Positions 940 through 40,998 of a stretch of DNA of 64,000 nucleotides are shown here, in pieces. The stretch is from assembly GCA_029551145.1 (NCBI GenBank), contig JAKPGA010000020.1, forward strand, positions 466 through 64,465, written 5' to 3'. Source of the DNA: Thermotogota bacterium. Lineage in GTDB: Bacteria > Thermotogota > Thermotogae > Thermotogales > DSM-5069. The notes beneath the pieces are model-generated. The model searched no databases, had not been told where the DNA came from, and saw only the letters and a list, made by a program, of their open reading frames with translations. Positions within the stretch are counted from its first letter, which is position 1; every line of letters starts with the position of its first letter. A program made the position numbers and the translations under genes.

Positions 940-968
940 TTGACAGAATTGATTATAATCATTATAAT
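940..968 (+). promoter_or_regulatory. Consensus sigma70 promoter of the GntR sugar operon
   Basis: TTGACA (940-945), 17-bp spacer, TATAAT (963-968). Confidence 0.85.
952..968. promoter_or_regulatory. Palindromic operator candidate overlapping the -10 (ATTATAAT-C-ATTATAAT; contains TTATAATnATTATAA)
   Basis: Perfect 8-1-8 inverted repeat read directly from the sequence. Confidence 0.55.
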
Positions 969-993
969 GAGTATAGTGATTGGGGGTGTTCAC

Positions 994-1725
994 TTGCCTT
1001 CAATGATTGATCCTTATTCAACAGAACCTTTGTATTACCAACTTAAGGAAGTCCTACGAAAGAACATACTCGCAGGTATATGGAAGTCTGGAGAACAGAT
1101 TCCAACTGAAAAACAGTTATCAGAAACCTTTGGTGTGAGTATCGCTGTTGTGAGACAAGCGGTGTCACTTCTGGTAGAAGAAGGGTTCTTAGTCAAAAGA
1201 CAGGGTAAAGGGACCTTTGTTGTAGATCTCAGAGTCAGGCAGGGTCCCAGGAAACTAACCAGTTTCACAGAAGAGATGTCGACTATGGGATTCAAACCAT
1301 CGTCGATGGTGCTTGAGAAAGGCATAAGACAGGCAGACGAGAAAATCAGTAGTGCTCTGAAATTGGAACCAAAGGCAAATGTAGTGATGATTAGAAGATT
1401 GAGATTTGCCAATAACGAACCGCTTGGCATACAGACATTTTATACCCCTGAGTATTTGGCTCCAGATTTTCTTGAGAACGATCTCACCCAATCTCTGTAC
1501 AAACTCCTTGAGACGAAGTATGGTGTTCGCATAGTGTCAGCCCAGGAGAAGTATTTTGCCACAATACTGGACAGATACGAGTGCAAATTGTTGAAAGTTA
1601 AATGGCCATTCGCTGGTTTCATAGTTGAGCGCGTGGCCTATGACTCAACTGGTACCCCCGTTGAATATACCGAATCGGTTATAAGAAGTGACAAGTACTC
1701 TGTGCAGATCAATCTGAGGAAGTGA
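994..1725 (+). CDS. GntR family (HutC/UTRA; NagR/DasR-like) transcriptional regulator
   Basis: PLYYQLKEVLR..I..G.W..GEQIPTE wHTH, VKRQGKGTFV and a C-terminal UTRA domain. TTG at 994 follows GGGGGTG; ATG 1003 is an alternative start. Confidence 0.92.
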   Translation: MPSMIDPYSTEPLYYQLKEVLRKNILAGIWKSGEQIPTEKQLSETFGVSIAVVRQAVSLLVEEGFLVKRQGKGTFVVDLRVRQGPRKLTSFTEEMSTMGFKPSSMVLEKGIRQADEKISSALKLEPKANVVMIRRLRFANNEPLGIQTFYTPEYLAPDFLENDLTQSLYKLLETKYGVRIVSAQEKYFATILDRYECKLLKVKWPFAGFIVERVAYDSTGTPVEYTESVIRSDKYSVQINLRK

Positions 1726-5553: not shown

Positions 5554-5583
5554 TTATCCACCTTTAGATAGGAGGGGTGAAGG

Positions 5584-6876
5584 ATGAGAAAGTCGTTAGT
5601 TTTGTTACTCGTGGCTGTACTCAGTCTTGTCGGTATCAGCGGTCTTGCAAAGACGAAGTTGATCTTTGCTGTTCACTGGTCAGACTATCAGGTTGAAGGA
5701 GTCAAGGACGAAAAAGAGAACATCACGGTGAAAGGGTTAAGGCAGTATGTTGAAGAGTATCAGAAATCGAACCCAGATGTTGAGATCGAGATTCAATCTG
5801 TGCCATTTGACGATTATCTCAAGCGCATACTGATCAGTCATACTTCTGGTGTTATTGCCGATGTGTACGTTTTGTACTCGCTCTGGGGTGTTCAACTGGT
5901 TGATTCTGGGATCCTCGATCAAGTCCCAAAAGATATCGTCGACAAAATCAAGAGTAATTTCGTCAGAGCTGCCGTAGATGGTGCAACCATTGACAAGGCC
6001 ATTTGGGGTGTGCCAGTGGAAGTAGACAATTACGCTCTCATTTACAACAAAAAACTCTTACAGGAAGCCGGTTTCAATCAGCCACCAAAGACGTGGGATG
6101 AACTGGTCGCAATGGCACCGAAACTAACCAAAAAGAATCCCGATGGAACGATCGCGCAGTATGGTTTCGCCTTCCTCTCCGGTTGGGATTCTGCCGTTGT
6201 GCATCCATATTTGGCACTCTTGCACAGCAACGGCGGAAAAATGTTCACAGATGATTTCACAGAATGTTTGCTCACTTCAAAAGAAGCAGTGGAAGCCCTT
6301 GAAGCAGAACTCAAACTCTTCAAGAATGGTGCGACCGATCCAGCGGCAAGTGTGTGGAACTTCCCGGCAGGTAAAGTCGCAATGATGATAATGGCACCGT
6401 GGTATGAGACATCTCTGAAACTGGGGTTCAAAGATCAGTACGAAGAAACAGTAGGGGTTGCTCCAATACCCTATTTGAAAAAACCTGCGACGGCTGGATA
6501 CACCTGGTTCATCGCGGTTGACGCAGCTTCAAAGAACAAGAAAGCCGCTTGGGACTTCATCAGATGGATGACCCTACAGGATGCCGGTGGTTTCACCAGA
6601 ATGGGCGAACTGATGGCAAAGAACATAGGTGCAATTCCACCAAATAAAACAGATATCAATTACTTCAAAGGCGAACTTGATGATCTGTACACATCTGTTT
6701 TTGTTAAGGAATTGGAAAACACTTATCAAGAACCGAACGTGGCGCAGGGACAGGAAATCAAAACAATACTCATGAGAGAGATCATCGAGGCATGGAATGG
6801 CCGCAAGACAGCTGAAAAGGCATTGAGTGATGCAAAGGTGCAGATCGACAAAATACTGGCTGAGTTCTACAAATGA
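5584..6876 (+). CDS. CUT1 sugar ABC transporter substrate-binding protein
   Basis: Signal peptide, LIYNKKLLQEAG..PPKTWDEL motif. Confidence 0.93.
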   Translation: MRKSLVLLLVAVLSLVGISGLAKTKLIFAVHWSDYQVEGVKDEKENITVKGLRQYVEEYQKSNPDVEIEIQSVPFDDYLKRILISHTSGVIADVYVLYSLWGVQLVDSGILDQVPKDIVDKIKSNFVRAAVDGATIDKAIWGVPVEVDNYALIYNKKLLQEAGFNQPPKTWDELVAMAPKLTKKNPDGTIAQYGFAFLSGWDSAVVHPYLALLHSNGGKMFTDDFTECLLTSKEAVEALEAELKLFKNGATDPAASVWNFPAGKVAMMIMAPWYETSLKLGFKDQYEETVGVAPIPYLKKPATAGYTWFIAVDAASKNKKAAWDFIRWMTLQDAGGFTRMGELMAKNIGAIPPNKTDINYFKGELDDLYTSVFVKELENTYQEPNVAQGQEIKTILMREIIEAWNGRKTAEKALSDAKVQIDKILAEFYK

Positions 6877-36795: not shown

Positions 36796-37211
36796 AATAC
36801 TTCAAATATCAAAGGTATTATCTGCAGTACCGCTTCATGCCTTGGTAAAGACACGATCAAAGTCTTTTTTCTCATTCCCACCGTTGGTGAAGTCAGCATA
36901 CATTCTTTGTGATGAGCGAGCATTTCACACAGATGCGTCTCAAGTGTGTAAACTCTCTCGTCACATATTCGCTTCACCGCTGTACTTGAGACTGCCGTAT
37001 TTGTTACATCTACGCCCCCGAGTATCATTAGAAGATCGACCTGCCTTTCAGATTGTTCGAAGATCATCTCCGCTATCTGATCAACATCTTGTGGTACCTT
37101 TATCATCTCAACCTGTACAGATAACTGTGCAAAAAATGATTGCAGTTTTTCAACAGTTAAACTGCTTTCGCCAACCAGTAGGCATGAGATCTTCATAAAT
37201 ATCATCTCCAA
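36783..37211 (-). CDS. Molybdopterin-binding (MogA/MoaB-like) domain protein, degenerate
   Basis: VDLLMILGG and GMRKKTLIVSLP match the MoaB/MogA fold pattern; canonical GGTG..RD is absent. Confidence 0.55.
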   Translation of the reverse strand: MEMIFMKISCLLVGESSLTVEKLQSFFAQLSVQVEMIKVPQDVDQIAEMIFEQSERQVDLLMILGGVDVTNTAVSSTAVKRICDERVYTLETHLCEMLAHHKECMLTSPTVGMRKKTLIVSLPRHEAVLQIIPLIFEVLKGG

Positions 37212-38617
37212 GGATCGTATTCACCTGAAAGGAACCTATCTATCCAGAAGGCTGCTTTCTTACCTGCACCCATCGCTTCAATGACAGTTGCAGCACCCGT
37301 TACAATATCTCCGCCCGCGAAGACCTTTCGCAAGGTAGTAGCGTAAGTCTCACTATCAACTACGATGTATCCATACTTGTTGAGACTCAACCCCTTGAAC
37401 TGGCTCAGCAAGAATCTGTTTGCATCGGTACCTATGGCCTCTATAACCATGTCGGCCTCTATCACAAATCTGCTGTCTTCGATCGGAATAGGCCTTCTTC
37501 TTCCCGATTCATCGGGTTCTCCAAGTTCCATACTGATACATTCCACACCGATCACTTTGCCCTTTTCATCTCCTATGTACCTGAGTGGCTGAGTGAGCCA
37601 TCTGAATCTTATACCTTCTTCAACCGCGTGGAGATATTCTTCCCGTCGAGCAGGCATCTCTTGTTCGGTTCTTCTGTAAACAACCACCACGCTCTTTGCA
37701 CCCAATCTCAAAGCGCTCCTTGCTGCATCCATTGCAACGTTTCCTCCGCCAACTACTACGATGTTGTTTCCTTTTTTCACGGGCGTATCATATTCTGGGA
37801 AAAGATACGCTTTCATCAAATTCACCCTGGTGAGGAACTCATTGGCAGAATAAACTCCGTTGAGGTTTGTGCCTGGTATCTTCATGAACTTGGGTGTTCC
37901 CGCACCAACACCTATGAAGATCGCATCGTAATCCTTCAGGAGTTCATCAACGGATATCGATTTACCAACAGGTGTATTCAAATGGATTTTCACCGAAAGT
38001 GATTCGACGTACTTTACCTCTCTTTCAACTATGGACTTTGGCAACCTGAACTCGGGTATGCCGTAGACCAAAACACCACCGGGTTTATGAAGTGTCTCAA
38101 AAACGTCAACCGAATATCCCATTTTCGCAAGATCCGCTGCTGCAGTAAGTCCAGCCGGACCAGAACCAACAACCGCTACCTTTTTGCCTTTTGGGACTGT
38201 GGGATCCACTGTTCTTTCTTTGACGTTGTCGGCCTCCCAGTCTGCTACGAACCTTTCAAGTCTGCCTATCGCCACCGGTTCCGAACCCGGTATTTTACCC
38301 ACGACACACCTTTCCTCGCACTGAACCTCCTGAGGGCATACCCTTCCACATATCGCAGGAAGATTGTTGTATTTTTTGAGAATTCTTGCCGACTCTTTGA
38401 AATCCCGTTCCTTGATCTTTTTTATAAACCCCGGTATGTCTATGCCCACAGGGCAACCACTCACACAGGGATGCGCTGGACATTGAAGACACCTCTTTGC
38501 TTCAGTAACTGCCTGCTCTTCGGAGTAGCCAAGTGCGACCTCGAAGAAATTCTTAACTCTATGCTGAGGTTCCTGTTCGGGCATTGGTGTTTTCTTCAAA
38601 GTCGGTTTCACAGCCAT
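37202..38617 (-). CDS. nfnB: Electron-bifurcating transhydrogenase large subunit (GltD/SudA-like)
   Basis: RCLQC..HPCVSGCP, GRVCPQEVQCE, GSGPAG, GGGNVAMD, AGGDIVTG; paired with nfnA. Confidence 0.9.
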   Translation of the reverse strand: MAVKPTLKKTPMPEQEPQHRVKNFFEVALGYSEEQAVTEAKRCLQCPAHPCVSGCPVGIDIPGFIKKIKERDFKESARILKKYNNLPAICGRVCPQEVQCEERCVVGKIPGSEPVAIGRLERFVADWEADNVKERTVDPTVPKGKKVAVVGSGPAGLTAAADLAKMGYSVDVFETLHKPGGVLVYGIPEFRLPKSIVEREVKYVESLSVKIHLNTPVGKSISVDELLKDYDAIFIGVGAGTPKFMKIPGTNLNGVYSANEFLTRVNLMKAYLFPEYDTPVKKGNNIVVVGGGNVAMDAARSALRLGAKSVVVVYRRTEQEMPARREEYLHAVEEGIRFRWLTQPLRYIGDEKGKVIGVECISMELGEPDESGRRRPIPIEDSRFVIEADMVIEAIGTDANRFLLSQFKGLSLNKYGYIVVDSETYATTLRKVFAGGDIVTGAATVIEAMGAGKKAAFWIDRFLSGEYDPWR

Positions 38618-39447
38618 GAGAGGTCACCCACGCTTTCTTTGAATTTTCTAAGGCTTAGTTCTTCTTCATCACGATACTGAGATAGTCTTACAAGTAACTC
38701 ATCCCAGTCCACCTTCGTGCCATCAAATTCCGGCCCATCTACACACGCGAATTTCAACTGACCATCCACGGTGACTCTGCATGCACCGCACATGCCAGTA
38801 CCATCCACCATGATTGGATTCAAAGATACCCAGATCTTCAATCCGAGTTCCTTCGCTTTGAGACTGCAAAACTTCATCATAATCGTAGGCCCAACTGCCC
38901 AGGCGACCTCGATCTTCGATTTATTCATCACCAAGTCCATCCCATCTGTCACAACTCCCTTGATTCCAAACGAACCGTCATCGGTTGTTATGATAAGTTC
39001 ATCGGCGATTTTTTCGAACTCATCGAGCATTATCACGTACTCTTTGCTTCTTCCACCCAAAATTACGTGGAGTTTGTTCCCGTGCTTTTTCAGTTCTTTG
39101 GCTATTGGGAGTAACGTTGCTATACCCACTCCACCACCGACGAGCATGACGTTGCCGAAATACGCTATCTCGCTGGGATTACCCAATGGTCCAGTCACAT
39201 CTGACAAAACATCGTTCTCGTTCATCATGCACAGTTCATAGGTGGTCTTTCCAACACCTCTCACCACCATCCGAAAACTGTCTTTGTAAAGATCAGCTAT
39301 CGTCAGAGGTATTCGTTCACCTTTTTCATGCGCTCTTGCGACGATGAACTGTCCTGGTCTTGCCTTGGCAGCTATCTGCTCGTTTTCGATGACAAAATCG
39401 TATACCTGTGGCGCCAATCTTGATTTCTTGATGATTCTGTTTTTCAA
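38608..39447 (-). CDS. nfnA: Electron-bifurcating transhydrogenase small subunit (SudB-like)
   Basis: GERIPLTI, GGGVG, MVDGTGMCGACRV, CVDGPEF. Confidence 0.9.
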   Translation of the reverse strand: MKNRIIKKSRLAPQVYDFVIENEQIAAKARPGQFIVARAHEKGERIPLTIADLYKDSFRMVVRGVGKTTYELCMMNENDVLSDVTGPLGNPSEIAYFGNVMLVGGGVGIATLLPIAKELKKHGNKLHVILGGRSKEYVIMLDEFEKIADELIITTDDGSFGIKGVVTDGMDLVMNKSKIEVAWAVGPTIMMKFCSLKAKELGLKIWVSLNPIMVDGTGMCGACRVTVDGQLKFACVDGPEFDGTKVDWDELLVRLSQYRDEEELSLRKFKESVGDLSWL

Positions 39448-39500
39448 ACCGTTTCACCTCCCATTAAACTTCTCTGCCCATATCTATTCAATTATAGACA

Positions 39501-39529
39501 TTGACATGTAACAACTTCTGGGTTAATAT
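39501..39529 (+). promoter_or_regulatory. Orphan sigma70 promoter pointing away from nfnA, with no plus-strand CDS downstream
   Basis: TTGACA, 17-bp spacer, TAATAT. Confidence 0.65.
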
Positions 39530-39536
39530 CTTTATT

Positions 39537-39611
39537 GGACAGCGACCCCCCTATCCCCCCTTGGATGGAACCAAGCTGCCTGAGGAGCCTGTTGTTCAGG
39601 CTCCTCATTTT
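39537..39611 (+). ncRNA. Putative C-rich small regulatory RNA (~75 nt)
   Basis: Lies between a promoter and a plus-oriented terminator; contains CCCCCC-TAT-CCCCCC, a CTTGG/CCAAG hairpin and a GGACAG/CTGCC closing stem. Confidence 0.6.
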
Positions 39612-39616
39612 ATTTT
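39581..39616 (+). terminator. Strong Rho-independent terminator, plus-oriented
   Basis: TGAGGAGCCTG-ttgtt-CAGGCTCCTCA (11 bp) then TTTTATTTT; no U-tract in the minus direction. Confidence 0.85.
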
Positions 39617-39676
39617 ATGTTATTCATGGAATTTCGAACCTGTGATCTTTGAGCAAAAGAAGTCGATCCTGATCCT

Positions 39677-40033
39677 TCAAAACAACCAGGGGAAGAAAAG
39701 TGAATGAAGAAAAGAACAATTACGAGCAAGTCGGTGTACCTGTGAAAAATCAACCACCTGTTTTTCAGTATTTTCCTAAGAAGATAGTACATAAAGAGCA
39801 AGACAACACCGAGCCACAGAACAAGCCCGGTGTGTAAAGTTATAGAACCAAGCGCGAGATAACCGTATGCCAGTCACCACCAAGCCAATACCAGTGAATC
39901 TGTGAGTCTTTGACATGCATCTAAGAAAGCTTCGCGCAGGCTTTACATTCTTCAATAACCTGCGTAGTGGCAATAACGAGAAATTGTAGAATATGAGAAC
40001 CACGCTGATCCATGCGAACACCTTGTACGTCAT
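39677..40033 (-). pseudogene. His-rich 4-TM cytochrome-b-like membrane protein, interrupted by frameshift(s)
   Basis: Frame 1 reads ..HRFTGIGLVVTGI; a frame switch at ~39865 gives GYLALGSITLHTGLVLW..FHRY..FIHF. A second probable slip in A4 (39696-39699) would restore FFPWLF*. Confidence 0.7.
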
Positions 40034-40998
40034 AAGATTCCAAATCCAACCTTAGCAAATTCTTTGAGAACACTTGCGTCACTGTGTTCATGGGAGCAAC
40101 TCTCTTGCAGTTCACATTCAAATTGAGATGTATAATCTCTGCCCGCTAAGGCTTCTGGATTGACTCCAAACTTTTCCTGCCAATTTGTACCCGTGACATC
40201 GTAAACAACATTGCCTACCTGGACAAAAGATTTGTACGCACTGATGTTCTTACTCGCCACAGGTACCGATTTGCCATCGAAGTTGCCAAGGTTTTTCTCA
40301 TCAAAGACCAAGAGTCCTATCGGATAGATTCTTGACAGCATAGCTTCATGCCCTGGTTGCTGTTTTATTTCAAAAGTCAACTCATTTCCAGCGGGATAGC
40401 CAAAATGTAGACCATTCTTGATTGTTTTAGATTGAGTCATATCGTAGACGACACCGAAGGCCGCTACATAAGCCTTGTTTTTGTTCAGCCCACTGTAACG
40501 AGAAAGTTGTTCGGGGCTGAAAACAAGAACTGCGAAAGGTACAACCCTTTCAAGTAACTTTGAACCATGGGGAGACAGTTTCAAGATATCGTAAGTCAGT
40601 TCTTCACCTGCATTATGCCTGTTTTGATGGTTACCAGTTCGCCAGCGTGTGGAATTGGAGACATCGTAAACAACACCGTTGACCGCAACCATGGCGGGGT
40701 TTTTCTTTCCATCGTATGAACGCAGTTCGTCGATAGTCATTGCGAGCAAGCCAACAAAATTGCCATCAGAGAGCAGTTCTGGTTTGATCTCGGATTTTGA
40801 CAAGAACTTTTTATTTGCGCTGATCTTGTAGACATTGCCCTCGACTGAAACATATTCATCAGTTTGGAGAAATCTTTGAAGACTCACCAAGGGAATATCG
40901 CCGGTGAACTTTGTAACGTCAAAGGTGCGAAGATCAATCTGAGCAAAGTTCAAGGTGGACAACAAAATCAACATGAATACCACTGACACCTTCATCAC
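40030..40998 (-). CDS. Secreted protein with four tandem cytochrome b5-like heme/steroid-binding repeats
   Basis: Signal peptide; repeated (Y/M)VAVNGVVYDVS..W..G.H....AG.ELT......PH motif. Confidence 0.85.
   Translation of the reverse strand: MMKVSVVFMLILLSTLNFAQIDLRTFDVTKFTGDIPLVSLQRFLQTDEYVSVEGNVYKISANKKFLSKSEIKPELLSDGNFVGLLAMTIDELRSYDGKKNPAMVAVNGVVYDVSNSTRWRTGNHQNRHNAGEELTYDILKLSPHGSKLLERVVPFAVLVFSPEQLSRYSGLNKNKAYVAAFGVVYDMTQSKTIKNGLHFGYPAGNELTFEIKQQPGHEAMLSRIYPIGLLVFDEKNLGNFDGKSVPVASKNISAYKSFVQVGNVVYDVTGTNWQEKFGVNPEALAGRDYTSQFECELQESCSHEHSDASVLKEFAKVGFGIL

Follow-up and report, generated by a model that had tools for sequence, protein, structure and literature searches.

A candidate base-pairing small RNA family, C-rich and in two sibling types, conserved across Thermotogota

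Introduction

Our analysis of a 64,000-nucleotide stretch of Thermotogota DNA (the window) makes us highly confident that a real small-RNA gene lies on its plus strand at positions 39501-39616. The gene belongs to a family that is kept almost letter for letter across Thermotogota and is found in no RNA catalogue. The locus thereby defines a phylum-wide small RNA (sRNA) family with two siblings, a near-invariant seed and a testable candidate target under selection at the nucleotide level. As the best overall explanation we favor, as probable, a trans-acting base-pairing sRNA of about 80 nt that represents this two-sibling family. To our knowledge, no conserved trans-acting sRNA family has been catalogued for Thermotogota. 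Thermotoga maritima has been reported to show a “paucity” of non-coding RNAs, none of them characterised (PMC3636130).

Results

Architecture of the locus

The initial annotation of this DNA had proposed a C-rich sRNA with its own promoter and terminator, and all elements of that unit are present at 39501-39616 (Table 1). The TTGACA-17-TAATAT promoter that it had read with no plus-strand gene behind it is in place: no plus-strand gene lies downstream of the unit, and the genes that come next are encoded on the minus strand. The two hexamers together match the consensus at 10 of 12 positions; the promoter match alone is not beyond chance (three promoter-like sites in 2 kb versus 3.0 expected). 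The 11-bp perfect terminator is likewise found as described, with a U tract that can work on the plus strand only, given that the minus strand reads GGCAGC after the hairpin. It had been placed about 75 nt after the promoter; the terminator indeed follows, but it starts 52 nt past the -10 hexamer, and 75-80 nt is the length of the whole RNA. A segment of about 45 nt between promoter and terminator holds CCCCCCUAUCCCCCC. The ends of the type A RNA given in Table 1 were placed from the position of the -10 hexamer (5') and from the U tract (3'). In silico, the promoter and the intrinsic terminator on the same strand make the locus an independent transcription unit.

Table 1. Features of the type A locus, in positions of the window.
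Feature	Position	Strand	Remark
-35 hexamer TTGACA	39501-39506	+	invariant in 8/8 genomes of the genus
Spacer	17 nt between -35 and -10	+	length constant in the genus, letters vary
TGTAACA element	39507-39513	+	directly 3' of the -35 hexamer; read from the sequences
-10 hexamer TAATAT	39524-39529	+	TAnTAT kept across the genus
Predicted type A small RNA	39537-39616	+	about 78-80 nt
Outer stem, 5' arm GGACAG	39537-39542	+	pairs with 39576-39580; fold and distant covariation
Outer stem, 3' arm CUGCC	39576-39580	+	fold and covariation in distant members
C-rich motif CCCCCCUAUCCCCCC (CCCCCC-UAU-CCCCCC)	39546-39560	+	invariant alignment columns; proposed pairing seed
Inner hairpin, alternative a: CUAUCC/GGAUGG	39551-39556 / 39563-39568	+	loop CCCCUU; minimum-energy fold
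Inner hairpin, alternative b (initial annotation): CUUGG/CCAAG	39560-39564 / 39571-39575	+	compensatory changes
Intrinsic terminator hairpin	39581-39607	+	11 bp perfect, 5-nt loop
U tract TTTTATTTT	39608-39616	+	directly 3' of the terminator hairpin

Both sibling types have the TGTAACA-type element, in the form T(T/G)TAACA, at a distance of 10-11 nt from the -10 hexamer on its upstream side, and only one other promoter of this kind was found in the genome; the element may be a regulator site. As an ECF-sigma or Rex site the conserved GTAAC element would have misfit spacing, and no such site is listed.

A two-sibling family across the phylum

Near-identical units occur in about 130 of the 151 Thermotogota genomes, and they fall into two sibling types. 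The motif CCCCCCUAUCCCCCC is found with at most one mismatch in 110 of the 151 genomes, and shorter-run variants and model hits add further genera. Type A is the present locus; type B lies in the same genome at G000:C13:70391-70467 on the minus strand, and both siblings share the near-invariant motif CC(CCCC)UAUCCCCC(C). Every one of the 81 distinct copies carries a hairpin and a T tail on the C-rich strand, built from 54 different stems. From the -35 hexamer through the terminator, identity across the genus is 86-93%, and in Pseudothermotoga, Fervidobacterium and Thermosipho the core shows no variation. With Pseudothermotoga as its only source, a covariance model finds all type A and type B loci at full length and on the right strand.

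The family as defined here comprises loci in which the motif follows a promoter at a distance of 10-50 nt and precedes a terminator on the same strand by 9-34 nt, and which match the covariance model R1; the present locus shows this architecture and is matched by R1 at 105.5 bits. A second model match in L059 fell within coding sequence and was discarded. Strong sigma-70-like promoters (at least 10 of 12 positions) precede 17 of 87 copies versus 2 of 87 controls and are limited to certain lineages. Homologues in relatives, with promoter, C tracts and terminator, had been named as a test of the proposal; they are kept in the genus and far beyond it. The earlier single-locus view was right about an independent C-rich sRNA gene but missed the two-sibling, phylum-wide family and the known transcript of the sibling.

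That the stretch is non-functional, with the hairpin serving merely as the terminator of a convergent gene beside a chance promoter-like sequence and a C-rich spacer, is highly unlikely. Promoter-like matches do occur in the region at chance frequency, and in most relatives a convergent gene for a TM0535-like protein ends right at the hairpin. The U tract is nevertheless on the wrong strand for that gene, the motif, unlike the intergenic sequence around it, is invariant, the unit persists in unrelated genomic contexts, and recovery by a model throughout the phylum would not be expected of a functionless stretch.

Scarcely credible, too, is a small protein, be it from the 36-codon TTG frame at 39535-39645 (..DSDPPIPPW..) or a short leaderless peptide. 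In this genome an open frame does run across the motif, as does a short ATG frame in some Fervidobacterium copies, but the former lacks a Shine-Dalgarno sequence and runs through the terminator. Start codons stand in different frames between genera, a 1-nt indel within the motif sets types A and B apart, and the motif does not vary at would-be synonymous positions while its flanks vary freely. No conserved frame or start codon was found, as expected of a non-coding RNA.

Predicted fold and covariation

The whole RNA folds at -36.1 kcal/mol (z = -6.2), and none of 200 shuffled sequences folds as well. Its minimum-energy structure retains the outer stem, and the inner pair is CUAUCC/GGAUGG (hairpin a), which displaces CUUGG/CCAAG (hairpin b); in the modelled structures the two inner hairpins are mutually exclusive. 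Distant members form hairpin a as CUAUCC/GGAUAG, and in other lineages the partner, GGAUA(G), is found on the 5' side of the motif. Hairpin b is lengthened with compensatory changes in Fervidobacterium and Thermosipho, and the outer stem covaries in distant lineages (e.g. GAGUGC/GCACUC and AAAGUG/CACUUU). Of the fold first proposed, the GGACAG/CUGCC outer stem and the unpaired C runs are borne out, the former by covariation and the latter by prediction, whereas CUUGG/CCAAG turns out to be one of two alternatives. Across homologues the C runs are predicted to be unpaired at 65 C with a probability of 0.87-0.95. The RNA presents two such C6 runs, followed by an intrinsic terminator.

Owing to misaligned stems in the MAFFT alignment, RNAalifold did not detect the terminator; it was replaced by a structure given by hand and a model-based alignment. 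In this alignment, which was fitted to the covariance model itself, 15 of 16 pairs are changed on both sides and pairing cells amount to 93.8%, versus 52-56% with partners slid by one column. In the same model-fitted alignment all 11 terminator pairs show compensatory changes, and four of the five pairs of hairpin b have changes on both sides.

Absence from catalogues and transcription of the sibling

The proposal that the RNA is undescribed was to be checked against Rfam, and it holds at every locus searched: at the gathering score, Rfam 15 gives no match in the window, at the sibling locus or at 10 homologous loci. A cmscan search of 39300-39900 at E <= 10 returned neither RF01820 nor RF01066 among its matches. 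As prior description, literature searches found only an anonymous entry in a T. maritima table, which concerns sibling type B. Latif et al. (2013; PMC3636130, Table S5) mapped a start site for this putative ncRNA, RTS_M_934685_934868, which is 184 nt long and stands in the table without name, family, structure or function. The T. maritima type B locus coincides with it on the same strand, and the 3' end of the ncRNA is located at the terminator base. The transcript rises from 243 FPKM in log phase to 11,438 in carbon-limited late exponential phase (PMC3636130), an induction of about 47-fold. The putative ncRNAs of that study (PMC3636130) do not include T. maritima type A, whose locus is on the minus strand of AE000512 at about 560700-560805; the sole segment listed at its locus is weak, on the minus strand, and starts inside the terminator. 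From its sequence elements, the type A locus studied here is presumably transcribed as well.

A candidate target in a secretin operon

Leaving aside the two sRNA genes themselves, the genome offers as its longest perfect complement a 16-nt site (G000:C58:49757-49772) that is complementary to positions 39548-39563 of the type A RNA. It lies at about codon 276 of the 357 codons of an exported-protein gene whose operon includes a secretin (PF00263), and in 8 of 8 genomes of the genus it is the one and only extra complementary site. It is also the most conserved 15-nt window of the gene (rank 1 of 777, from seven orthologues that are 62-74% identical). Among 34 conserved four-fold-degenerate codons, the third base is invariant in three only, and these are the GGG codons inside the site, GGG being the rarest glycine codon (12%). 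As judged from these orthologues, the site is under selection at the nucleotide level. In T. maritima the orthologous operon lacks such a coding-region site. Whether the secretin-operon site is a true target of the RNA seems to us evenly balanced. Pairing with ribosomal RNA was considered as well and rejected, the longest perfect match to the RNA being just 9 nt.

Candidate targets at translation starts

Extra sites in other genera, matching 14-15 of 15 positions, fall mostly at translation starts in the form AAGGGGGGAUAGGGG-(A/G)UG and span the region from the Shine-Dalgarno sequence to the start codon. In this genome GGGGGGAU is over-represented in start regions relative to single-change variants of GAGGUGAU (odds ratio 4.4, p = 0.005), and the start-region excess is also seen in T. 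maritima (odds ratio 11, p = 3e-8). Complementarity hence goes beyond composition, and target conservation across families is weak. In T. maritima, TM1802 is one gene whose mRNA carries a complementary site. Pairing with G-rich ribosome-binding regions, as originally suggested, is the best-supported mechanism.

Where start regions show at least 9 nt of complementarity, 13 of 19 belong to signal-peptide proteins (odds ratio 18, p = 4e-9), an enrichment that is far weaker in T. maritima; genes and signal peptides were called here by crude heuristics of our own. By Pfam, the top predicted targets include PEGA, a C11 protease and an alpha-2-macroglobulin-like protein. A regulon of ABC-transporter binding proteins (SBPs) was rejected, since the Pfam assignments of the top matches are mostly other exported proteins, with one binding protein among them. 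A special status of the specific target named at the outset, the ribosome-binding site of a sugar SBP at 5567-5578, is not supported: the sequence is there (GAUAGGAGGGGUG at 5567-5579, upstream of an ATG at 5584), but it is one of the top 2% among about 1950 genes, with no sign of conservation.

Genera with no detectable family member are still rich in GGGGGGAU start regions, which renders a phylogenetic profile of sRNA presence against such starts uninformative. In a CopraRNA-like joint ranking of Pseudothermotoga and T. maritima orthologues, target predictions for Pseudothermotoga and Thermotoga correlate with a Spearman rho of 0.13-0.14, versus 0.35 for a 16S anti-Shine-Dalgarno control. 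G-run Shine-Dalgarno sequences are conserved in orthologues no more than canonical GGAGG (odds ratio 2.7 versus 2.8).

An improbable alternative is that the RNA serves as a protein sponge or decoy, its exposed C motif titrating a C-preferring protein, e.g. Rho or one with KH domains. Conservation of specific mRNA targets between families is poor, and 13-15 nt kept invariant throughout a phylum would be unusual for a many-target seed and more typical of a fixed partner. Rho prefers C-rich unstructured RNA. Binding of C-rich strands is also known for the KH domains of poly(C)-binding proteins (PMC11261784). Against a sponge speak the long complementary sites of other genera, which fall on translation starts, and the 16-nt secretin-operon site: its nucleotide-level selection is hard to explain without RNA-RNA pairing. 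We retain base pairing with messages as the preferred reading.

Genomic neighbourhood

Type A lies immediately upstream of nfnA in every genome of the source family, back to back with the nfnAB promoter region. This adjacency is specific to the family: in Thermotoga, type A stands beside other genes, and in Fervidobacterium and Thermosipho it is found elsewhere again. The arrangement could point to a cis-acting or DNA-level control element of nfnAB (an operator or upstream antisense) in place of a free-standing RNA, and a minus-strand TATAAT (39496-39491) does adjoin the -35 hexamer, with a small palindrome, ACATGT, at the same place. Such an element is nonetheless very improbable. The unit with its C-strand terminator occurs without nfnAB in Thermotoga, Fervidobacterium, Thermosipho and six further families, a second copy lies elsewhere in the same genome, and the conserved parts are downstream of the plus-strand promoter, away from nfnA.

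The position of the locus had also been taken as a hint of redox control, and this is not supported. Besides the adjacency being confined to one family, the translation starts of nfnA and b5 are at the 56th and 82nd percentile of the target ranking and are thus not predicted targets, and a RegPrecise-derived table (PMC3636130) has no Rex site close to the one or the other T. maritima locus.

Discussion

A possible mode of action

A sigma-70-type promoter and an intrinsic terminator of its own would drive the RNA independently of nfnAB, and the C runs would be held single-stranded or in a small loop between the short 5' stem and the terminator. We consider it likely that the RNA acts by base pairing through the C motif, which would pair by Watson-Crick rules with mRNA stretches of the form (A)AGGGGGG-AUA-GGGG. 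In several genera, a duplex that reaches from the Shine-Dalgarno sequence to the start would keep ribosomes from loading; inside the coding region, as in this genus, pairing would more likely trigger decay or affect downstream genes. Messages are most likely silenced through pairing with such G-rich sites. With about -25 kcal/mol predicted at 65 C, the long, G-C-rich duplex would suit growth at high temperature. Hfq may assist via the 3' hairpin and U tail: the genome holds an hfq gene (PF17209 match, G000:C43:22937-23119, 102 bits), the RNA ends in a hairpin with a U tail, and the U tract could be an Hfq-binding 3' tail. Pairing in vivo, repression as its outcome and the involvement of Hfq are what we infer from these features.

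A more far-reaching scenario, tentative and in our view rather unlikely, is that the siblings form an ancient, phylum-wide riboregulator pair whose 15-16-nt seed with its all-G-C flanks has been frozen since the Thermotogota radiation. Under nutrient limitation the pair would govern the exported and outer-envelope (“toga”) proteome, including the secretin system, via G6-AUA-G4 sites that span Shine-Dalgarno sequence to start codon or lie in coding regions. If true, this would be the deepest-conserved base-pairing seed known, and it would show how RNA-RNA regulation works at 65-90 C. The family as such offers a way into antisense regulation at very high temperature, which may call for long G-C seeds, and an entry point into the control of the poorly understood toga and secretin apparatus. 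The covariance model is ready for annotating about 130 genomes.

Comparison with known systems

The anonymous T. maritima RNA, RTS_M_934685_934868, is a type B sibling that shares the motif CCCCCCUAUCCCCC and a terminator-bounded design with the type A RNA and differs from it in being a paralogue at another locus and in its long 5' extension. RsaE/RoxS (RF01820) of Staphylococcus and Bacillus is likewise a short RNA with its own promoter and terminator, whose several unpaired C-rich tracts pair with G-rich ribosome-binding regions and whose conservation is unusually wide for a base-pairing sRNA. In contrast to RsaE/RoxS, the Thermotogota RNA is shorter, belongs to another phylum, gives no match to the covariance model (E <= 10), combines two C5-6 runs joined by UAU into one 15-16-nt seed and has two sibling genes per genome. 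No link to Rex or ResD was found for it in the T. maritima table (PMC3636130).

The 6C RNA of Actinobacteria (RF01066) is also a phylum-wide, C-rich small RNA with C runs exposed in loops. Its covariance model gives no match to the Thermotogota loci, however, and 6C consists of two hairpins, each with a C-rich loop, whereas here one C run is looped or single-stranded, with a pairing partner that changes position from lineage to lineage. MicC, which acts on ompD in enterobacteria, resembles the present case in that the best candidate site lies deep inside a coding region and not at its start; RNase-dependent decay is only assumed here, and the ribonuclease set of Thermotogota differs. The LhrC family of Listeria and other multicopy sRNAs with UCCC motifs have no sequence relation to the Thermotogota family, whose regulon is a predicted one, yet they too are sibling sRNAs with C-rich motifs, and they pair at the ribosome-binding sites of mRNAs for surface and exported proteins, as is proposed here.

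Results

Promoter, terminator and fold of the type A locus

Every element that the initial annotation had described for the C-rich small RNA locus at 39501-39616 (here type A) lies exactly where it was placed. Read on the minus strand, the type A hairpin runs into GGCAGC; it can thus terminate plus-strand transcripts only, in agreement with the earlier claim that its U tract works in one direction. The promoter match by itself does not exceed chance (3 sites found versus 3.0 expected). Across the genus Pseudothermotoga TTGACA and TAnTAT are fixed and the sequence of the 17-nt spacer varies, a pattern typical of functional promoters. The 81-nt RNA folds at -36.1 kcal/mol, far better than its shuffles (z = -6.2). 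The proposed outer stem is retained in the minimum-energy fold; the proposed CUUGG/CCAAG hairpin is replaced there by CUAUCC/GGAUGG, the two inner hairpins being mutually exclusive.

Features of the type A locus, its surroundings and related sites (window coordinates unless a genome is named)
Feature	Location	Strand	Remark
-35 TTGACA	39501-39506	+	read from sequence
Promoter spacer, 17 nt	between TTGACA and TAATAT	+	read from sequence
T(T/G)TAACA element	39507-39513; equivalent position in homologous loci, e.g. L107, L024, L020		
-10 TAATAT	39524-39529	+	read from sequence
GGACAG, outer stem 5' arm	39537-39542	+	read from sequence
CCCCCC-UAU-CCCCCC	39546-39560	+	read from sequence
CUUGG/CCAAG	39560-39564 and 39571-39575	+	read from sequence
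CUGCC, outer stem 3' arm	39576-39580	+	read from sequence
11-bp perfect terminator hairpin, then TTTTATTTT	39581-39607 (hairpin)	+	read from sequence
NfnB/GltD-like protein	37202-38617	-	
NfnA-like protein	38608-39447	-	
Small membrane ORF and cytochrome-b5-repeat protein	39776-40998	-	opposite side of type A from nfnAB
TM0535-like membrane protein, 208 aa	41130-41756	-	
Type B sibling, source genome (G000)	G000:C13:70391-70467; locus L081 ~949-1025	-	outside window
16-nt seed complement CAAGGGGGGAUAGGGG	G000:C58:49757-49772	-	outside window
TM1802 translation start, CAGGGGGGAUAGGGG-UG	T. maritima (G028) 1779740-1779754	-	complementary to T. maritima siblings, 14-15 nt

The T(T/G)TAACA element, directly 3' of the -35 and 10-11 nt upstream of the -10, is common to the promoters of both sibling types. 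The only other G000 promoter of this form is TTGACATGTAACA, before a sugar-binding-protein gene at G000:C64:104807, and the element may be a site for a common regulator. The minus strand carries a perfect TATAAT (39491-39496) that lies 44 nt upstream of nfnA's start codon and adjoins the sRNA -35, placing the two promoters back to back.

In all 81 distinct homologues the motif is followed, 9-34 nt on, by a hairpin and then a T-rich tail; the stems comprise 54 different sequences, and an A-rich 5' flank able to serve the other strand occurs in only 8 of the homologues. A covariance model built from 10 Pseudothermotoga-group sequences only, with a hand-given structure, found each type A and type B locus of every lineage at full length and on the correct strand. 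Within the model alignment, which was fitted to the covariance model and is therefore biased in favour of the structure, 93.8% of cells pair (52-56% with partners slid by one column), and of the terminator and hairpin pairs 11 of 11 and 4 of 5, respectively, have changed on both sides. Distant members show covariation in the outer stem, which is GGACAG/CUGCC at type A and GAGUGC/GCACUC or AAAGUG/CACUUU in them; their inner hairpin is CUAUCC/GGAUAG. Other lineages have a GGAUA(G) partner 5' of the motif instead, so that one or the other C run is looped out. In predictions for the homologues at 65 C, the C runs are unpaired with a probability of 0.87-0.95 and the central CUAUCC is paired about half the time.

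A coding reading of the locus was excluded: a 1-nt indel within the motif separates the siblings, potential start codons lie in differing frames between genera, and the motif does not vary at would-be synonymous positions. We hold with high confidence that type A is a real, uncatalogued small RNA gene.

Catalogues and published transcripts

Rfam 15 found nothing for the sRNA in the window, its only matches being two tRNAs elsewhere, and gave no match at the sibling locus or at 10 homologous loci of other lineages; RsaE/RoxS and 6C were absent even among the weakest matches listed. A full-text literature search returned no description and one trace, an unnamed putative ncRNA of T. maritima in Table S5 of Latif et al. 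2013 (PMC3636130). This minus-strand ncRNA, RTS_M_934685_934868, has a mapped start site. Allowing for the offset of +8 to +18 nt between G028 gene coordinates and that study, the T. maritima type B motif falls within it and its annotated 3' end is the base of the type B terminator. Its reported FPKM is 243 in log phase, 689 under heat shock, 434 in hydrogen-inhibited cells and 11,438 in carbon-limited late exponential phase (PMC3636130). Type A of T. maritima, between TM0535 and TM0536, is absent from Table S5; the same data hold only a weak antisense segment there, starting inside the terminator.

Distribution and sibling types

BLAST of the type A intergenic region matched 30 of 40 relatives; within the genus, the matches span the -35 through the terminator and are 86-93% identical. 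When 185,579 species genomes were scanned for exact occurrences of the 19-mer CCCCCCTATCCCCCCTTGG, it turned up in records labelled Pseudothermotoga, Thermotogaceae, Fervidobacterium and Thermosipho, and also in unrelated, differently structured cyanobacterial and deltaproteobacterial repeats. With at most one mismatch the motif occurs in 110 of 151 Thermotogota genomes, and more genera come in through variants whose runs have 5 C or whose first run is shortened; taken together, these matches place family members in all 11 sampled family-level groups. A few genera among the Thermotogota genomes searched lack a detectable copy. In one Thermotogaceae genus the locus L246 (G040:C168:7231-7316) retains the scaffold ..UUUGGAUGAAACCAAG.. 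and has lost both C runs; it looks like a decayed family member. In the public MAG CBFDVG01 the assembly is broken right at the sRNA locus, with Nextera adapter at the ends of contigs 1 and 14 (CTGTCTCTTATACACATCT.. / ..AGATGTGTATAAGAGACAG, at the 3' end of L010/L023 and the 5' end of L046), and the sRNA is present twice.

Most genomes hold two loci. Type A has the form ...CCCCCCUAUCCCCCC-UUGGA... and type B the form GACCCCCCUAUCCCCCUUGAGAUACACCCCCCACGG, with an extra third C run, each followed by a terminator; in Thermotoga type A, GAU replaces UAU. The G000 type B sequence is GAAACCCCCCUAUCCCCCUUGAGAUACACCCCCCACGG, then the terminator GCGGGCUUUAGAGCCCGC-U8, with TTTACA-16-TAGCAT plus a TG extension as candidate promoter. 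G000 also has a third C-rich tract, CCCCCCCACCCCC (G000:C13:33816-33828, minus strand, outside the window), which follows the stop codon of a 205-codon gene, precedes a strong terminator, GCGCCGGCG-CAA-GCCGGCGC-U5, and may be a 3'UTR-derived C-rich RNA.

Genomic neighbourhood

All neighbouring genes lie on the minus strand, and type A is divergent from nfnA in every genome of the source family. The neighbour common with Thermotoga is the convergent TM0535-like gene. In the source species group, and there specifically, an inserted gene pair separates this gene from the sRNA, namely the b5-repeat gene with its small membrane partner; elsewhere in the genus sRNA and TM0535-like gene converge directly. 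Fervidobacterium, Thermosipho and other families have different neighbours again, the translation starts of nfnA and b5 are both absent from the predicted targets, and the RegPrecise-derived table of PMC3636130 lists no Rex site close to the T. maritima sRNA loci. The redox control suggested initially thus rests on position in one family only.

Pairing with ribosome-binding regions

The 16S rRNA 3' end is GGAUCACCUCCUUUCUA. Apart from the A and U, which are replaced, the sRNA's AUCCCCCCUUGG is similar to this tail, and the sRNA therefore favours Shine-Dalgarno sequences made of G runs. By our own, crude gene calls, 10% of G000 genes have GGGGG in the ribosome-binding region. Duplexes of -12 kcal/mol or below are predicted at 107 of 1955 starts versus 10 of 1556 internal windows, an excess expected of any C-rich RNA. 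A more specific signal is perfect complementarity of at least 9 nt, which occurs in 19 start regions, 13 of them of signal-peptide proteins (odds ratio 18, p = 4e-9). GGGGG Shine-Dalgarno sequences are about twice as common in signal-peptide genes (19-20%) as in others (8-10%), in G000 and T. maritima alike. Relative to single-change variants of canonical GAGGUGAU, GGGGGGAU is over-represented (odds ratio 4.4 here, 11 in T. maritima), and AU follows 30-39% of runs of G>=6 versus 8-9% of G4-5; both are likewise more specific signals. Against specificity stand the weak orthologue-level conservation of predicted pairing between the G000 genus and Thermotoga, and the use of GGGGGGAU by genera without the sRNA.

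In other genera, extra sites matching 14-15 of 15 positions lie mostly on translation starts and read AAGGGGGGAUAGGGG-(A/G)UG; there the C runs and UAU would cover the Shine-Dalgarno sequence, spacer and start-codon edge. An example is TM1802, first gene of a cas operon in T. maritima; this site is also present in one other Thermotoga genome.

A conserved site in a secretin operon

The longest perfect seed complement in G000 outside both sRNA genes is the 16-nt CAAGGGGGGAUAGGGG, at about codon 276 of a 357-codon exported-protein gene without a Pfam match, one of six clustered minus-strand genes, among them a secretin (PF00263). Exactly one extra site, this one, is found in 8 of 8 Pseudothermotoga genomes. 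It is the most conserved 15-nt window of the gene (rank 1 of 777; seven orthologues, 62-74% identical), and among 34 conserved four-fold-degenerate codons only its three GGG glycine codons have an invariant third base, GGG being the rarest glycine codon in G000 (12%). Since these codons alone are invariant and the window ranks first, the comparison indicates selection on nucleotides, not protein. The predicted duplex with the sRNA reaches -24.7 kcal/mol at 65 C, against -5.9 for the 16S tail at the same site. Such a coding-region site is absent from the orthologous T. maritima operon; targets therefore appear lineage-specific and the seed fixed. The CAAGGGGGGAUAGGGG site is our strongest single target lead.

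Discussion

Of the mechanisms by which the sRNA might act, base pairing is the best supported and, in our judgement, probably the right one, in line with the anti-Shine-Dalgarno pairing first proposed and with the near-complete matches on translation starts in other genera. An hfq gene is present in G000, and Hfq may be involved. The best clues to regulon and signal are the induction of the sibling under carbon limitation and the bias to exported proteins and the secretin operon. The type A RNA belongs to a known kind, the C-rich riboregulators directed at ribosome-binding sites; unusual in its family are the breadth and depth of conservation, the sibling pair per genome and the long seed.
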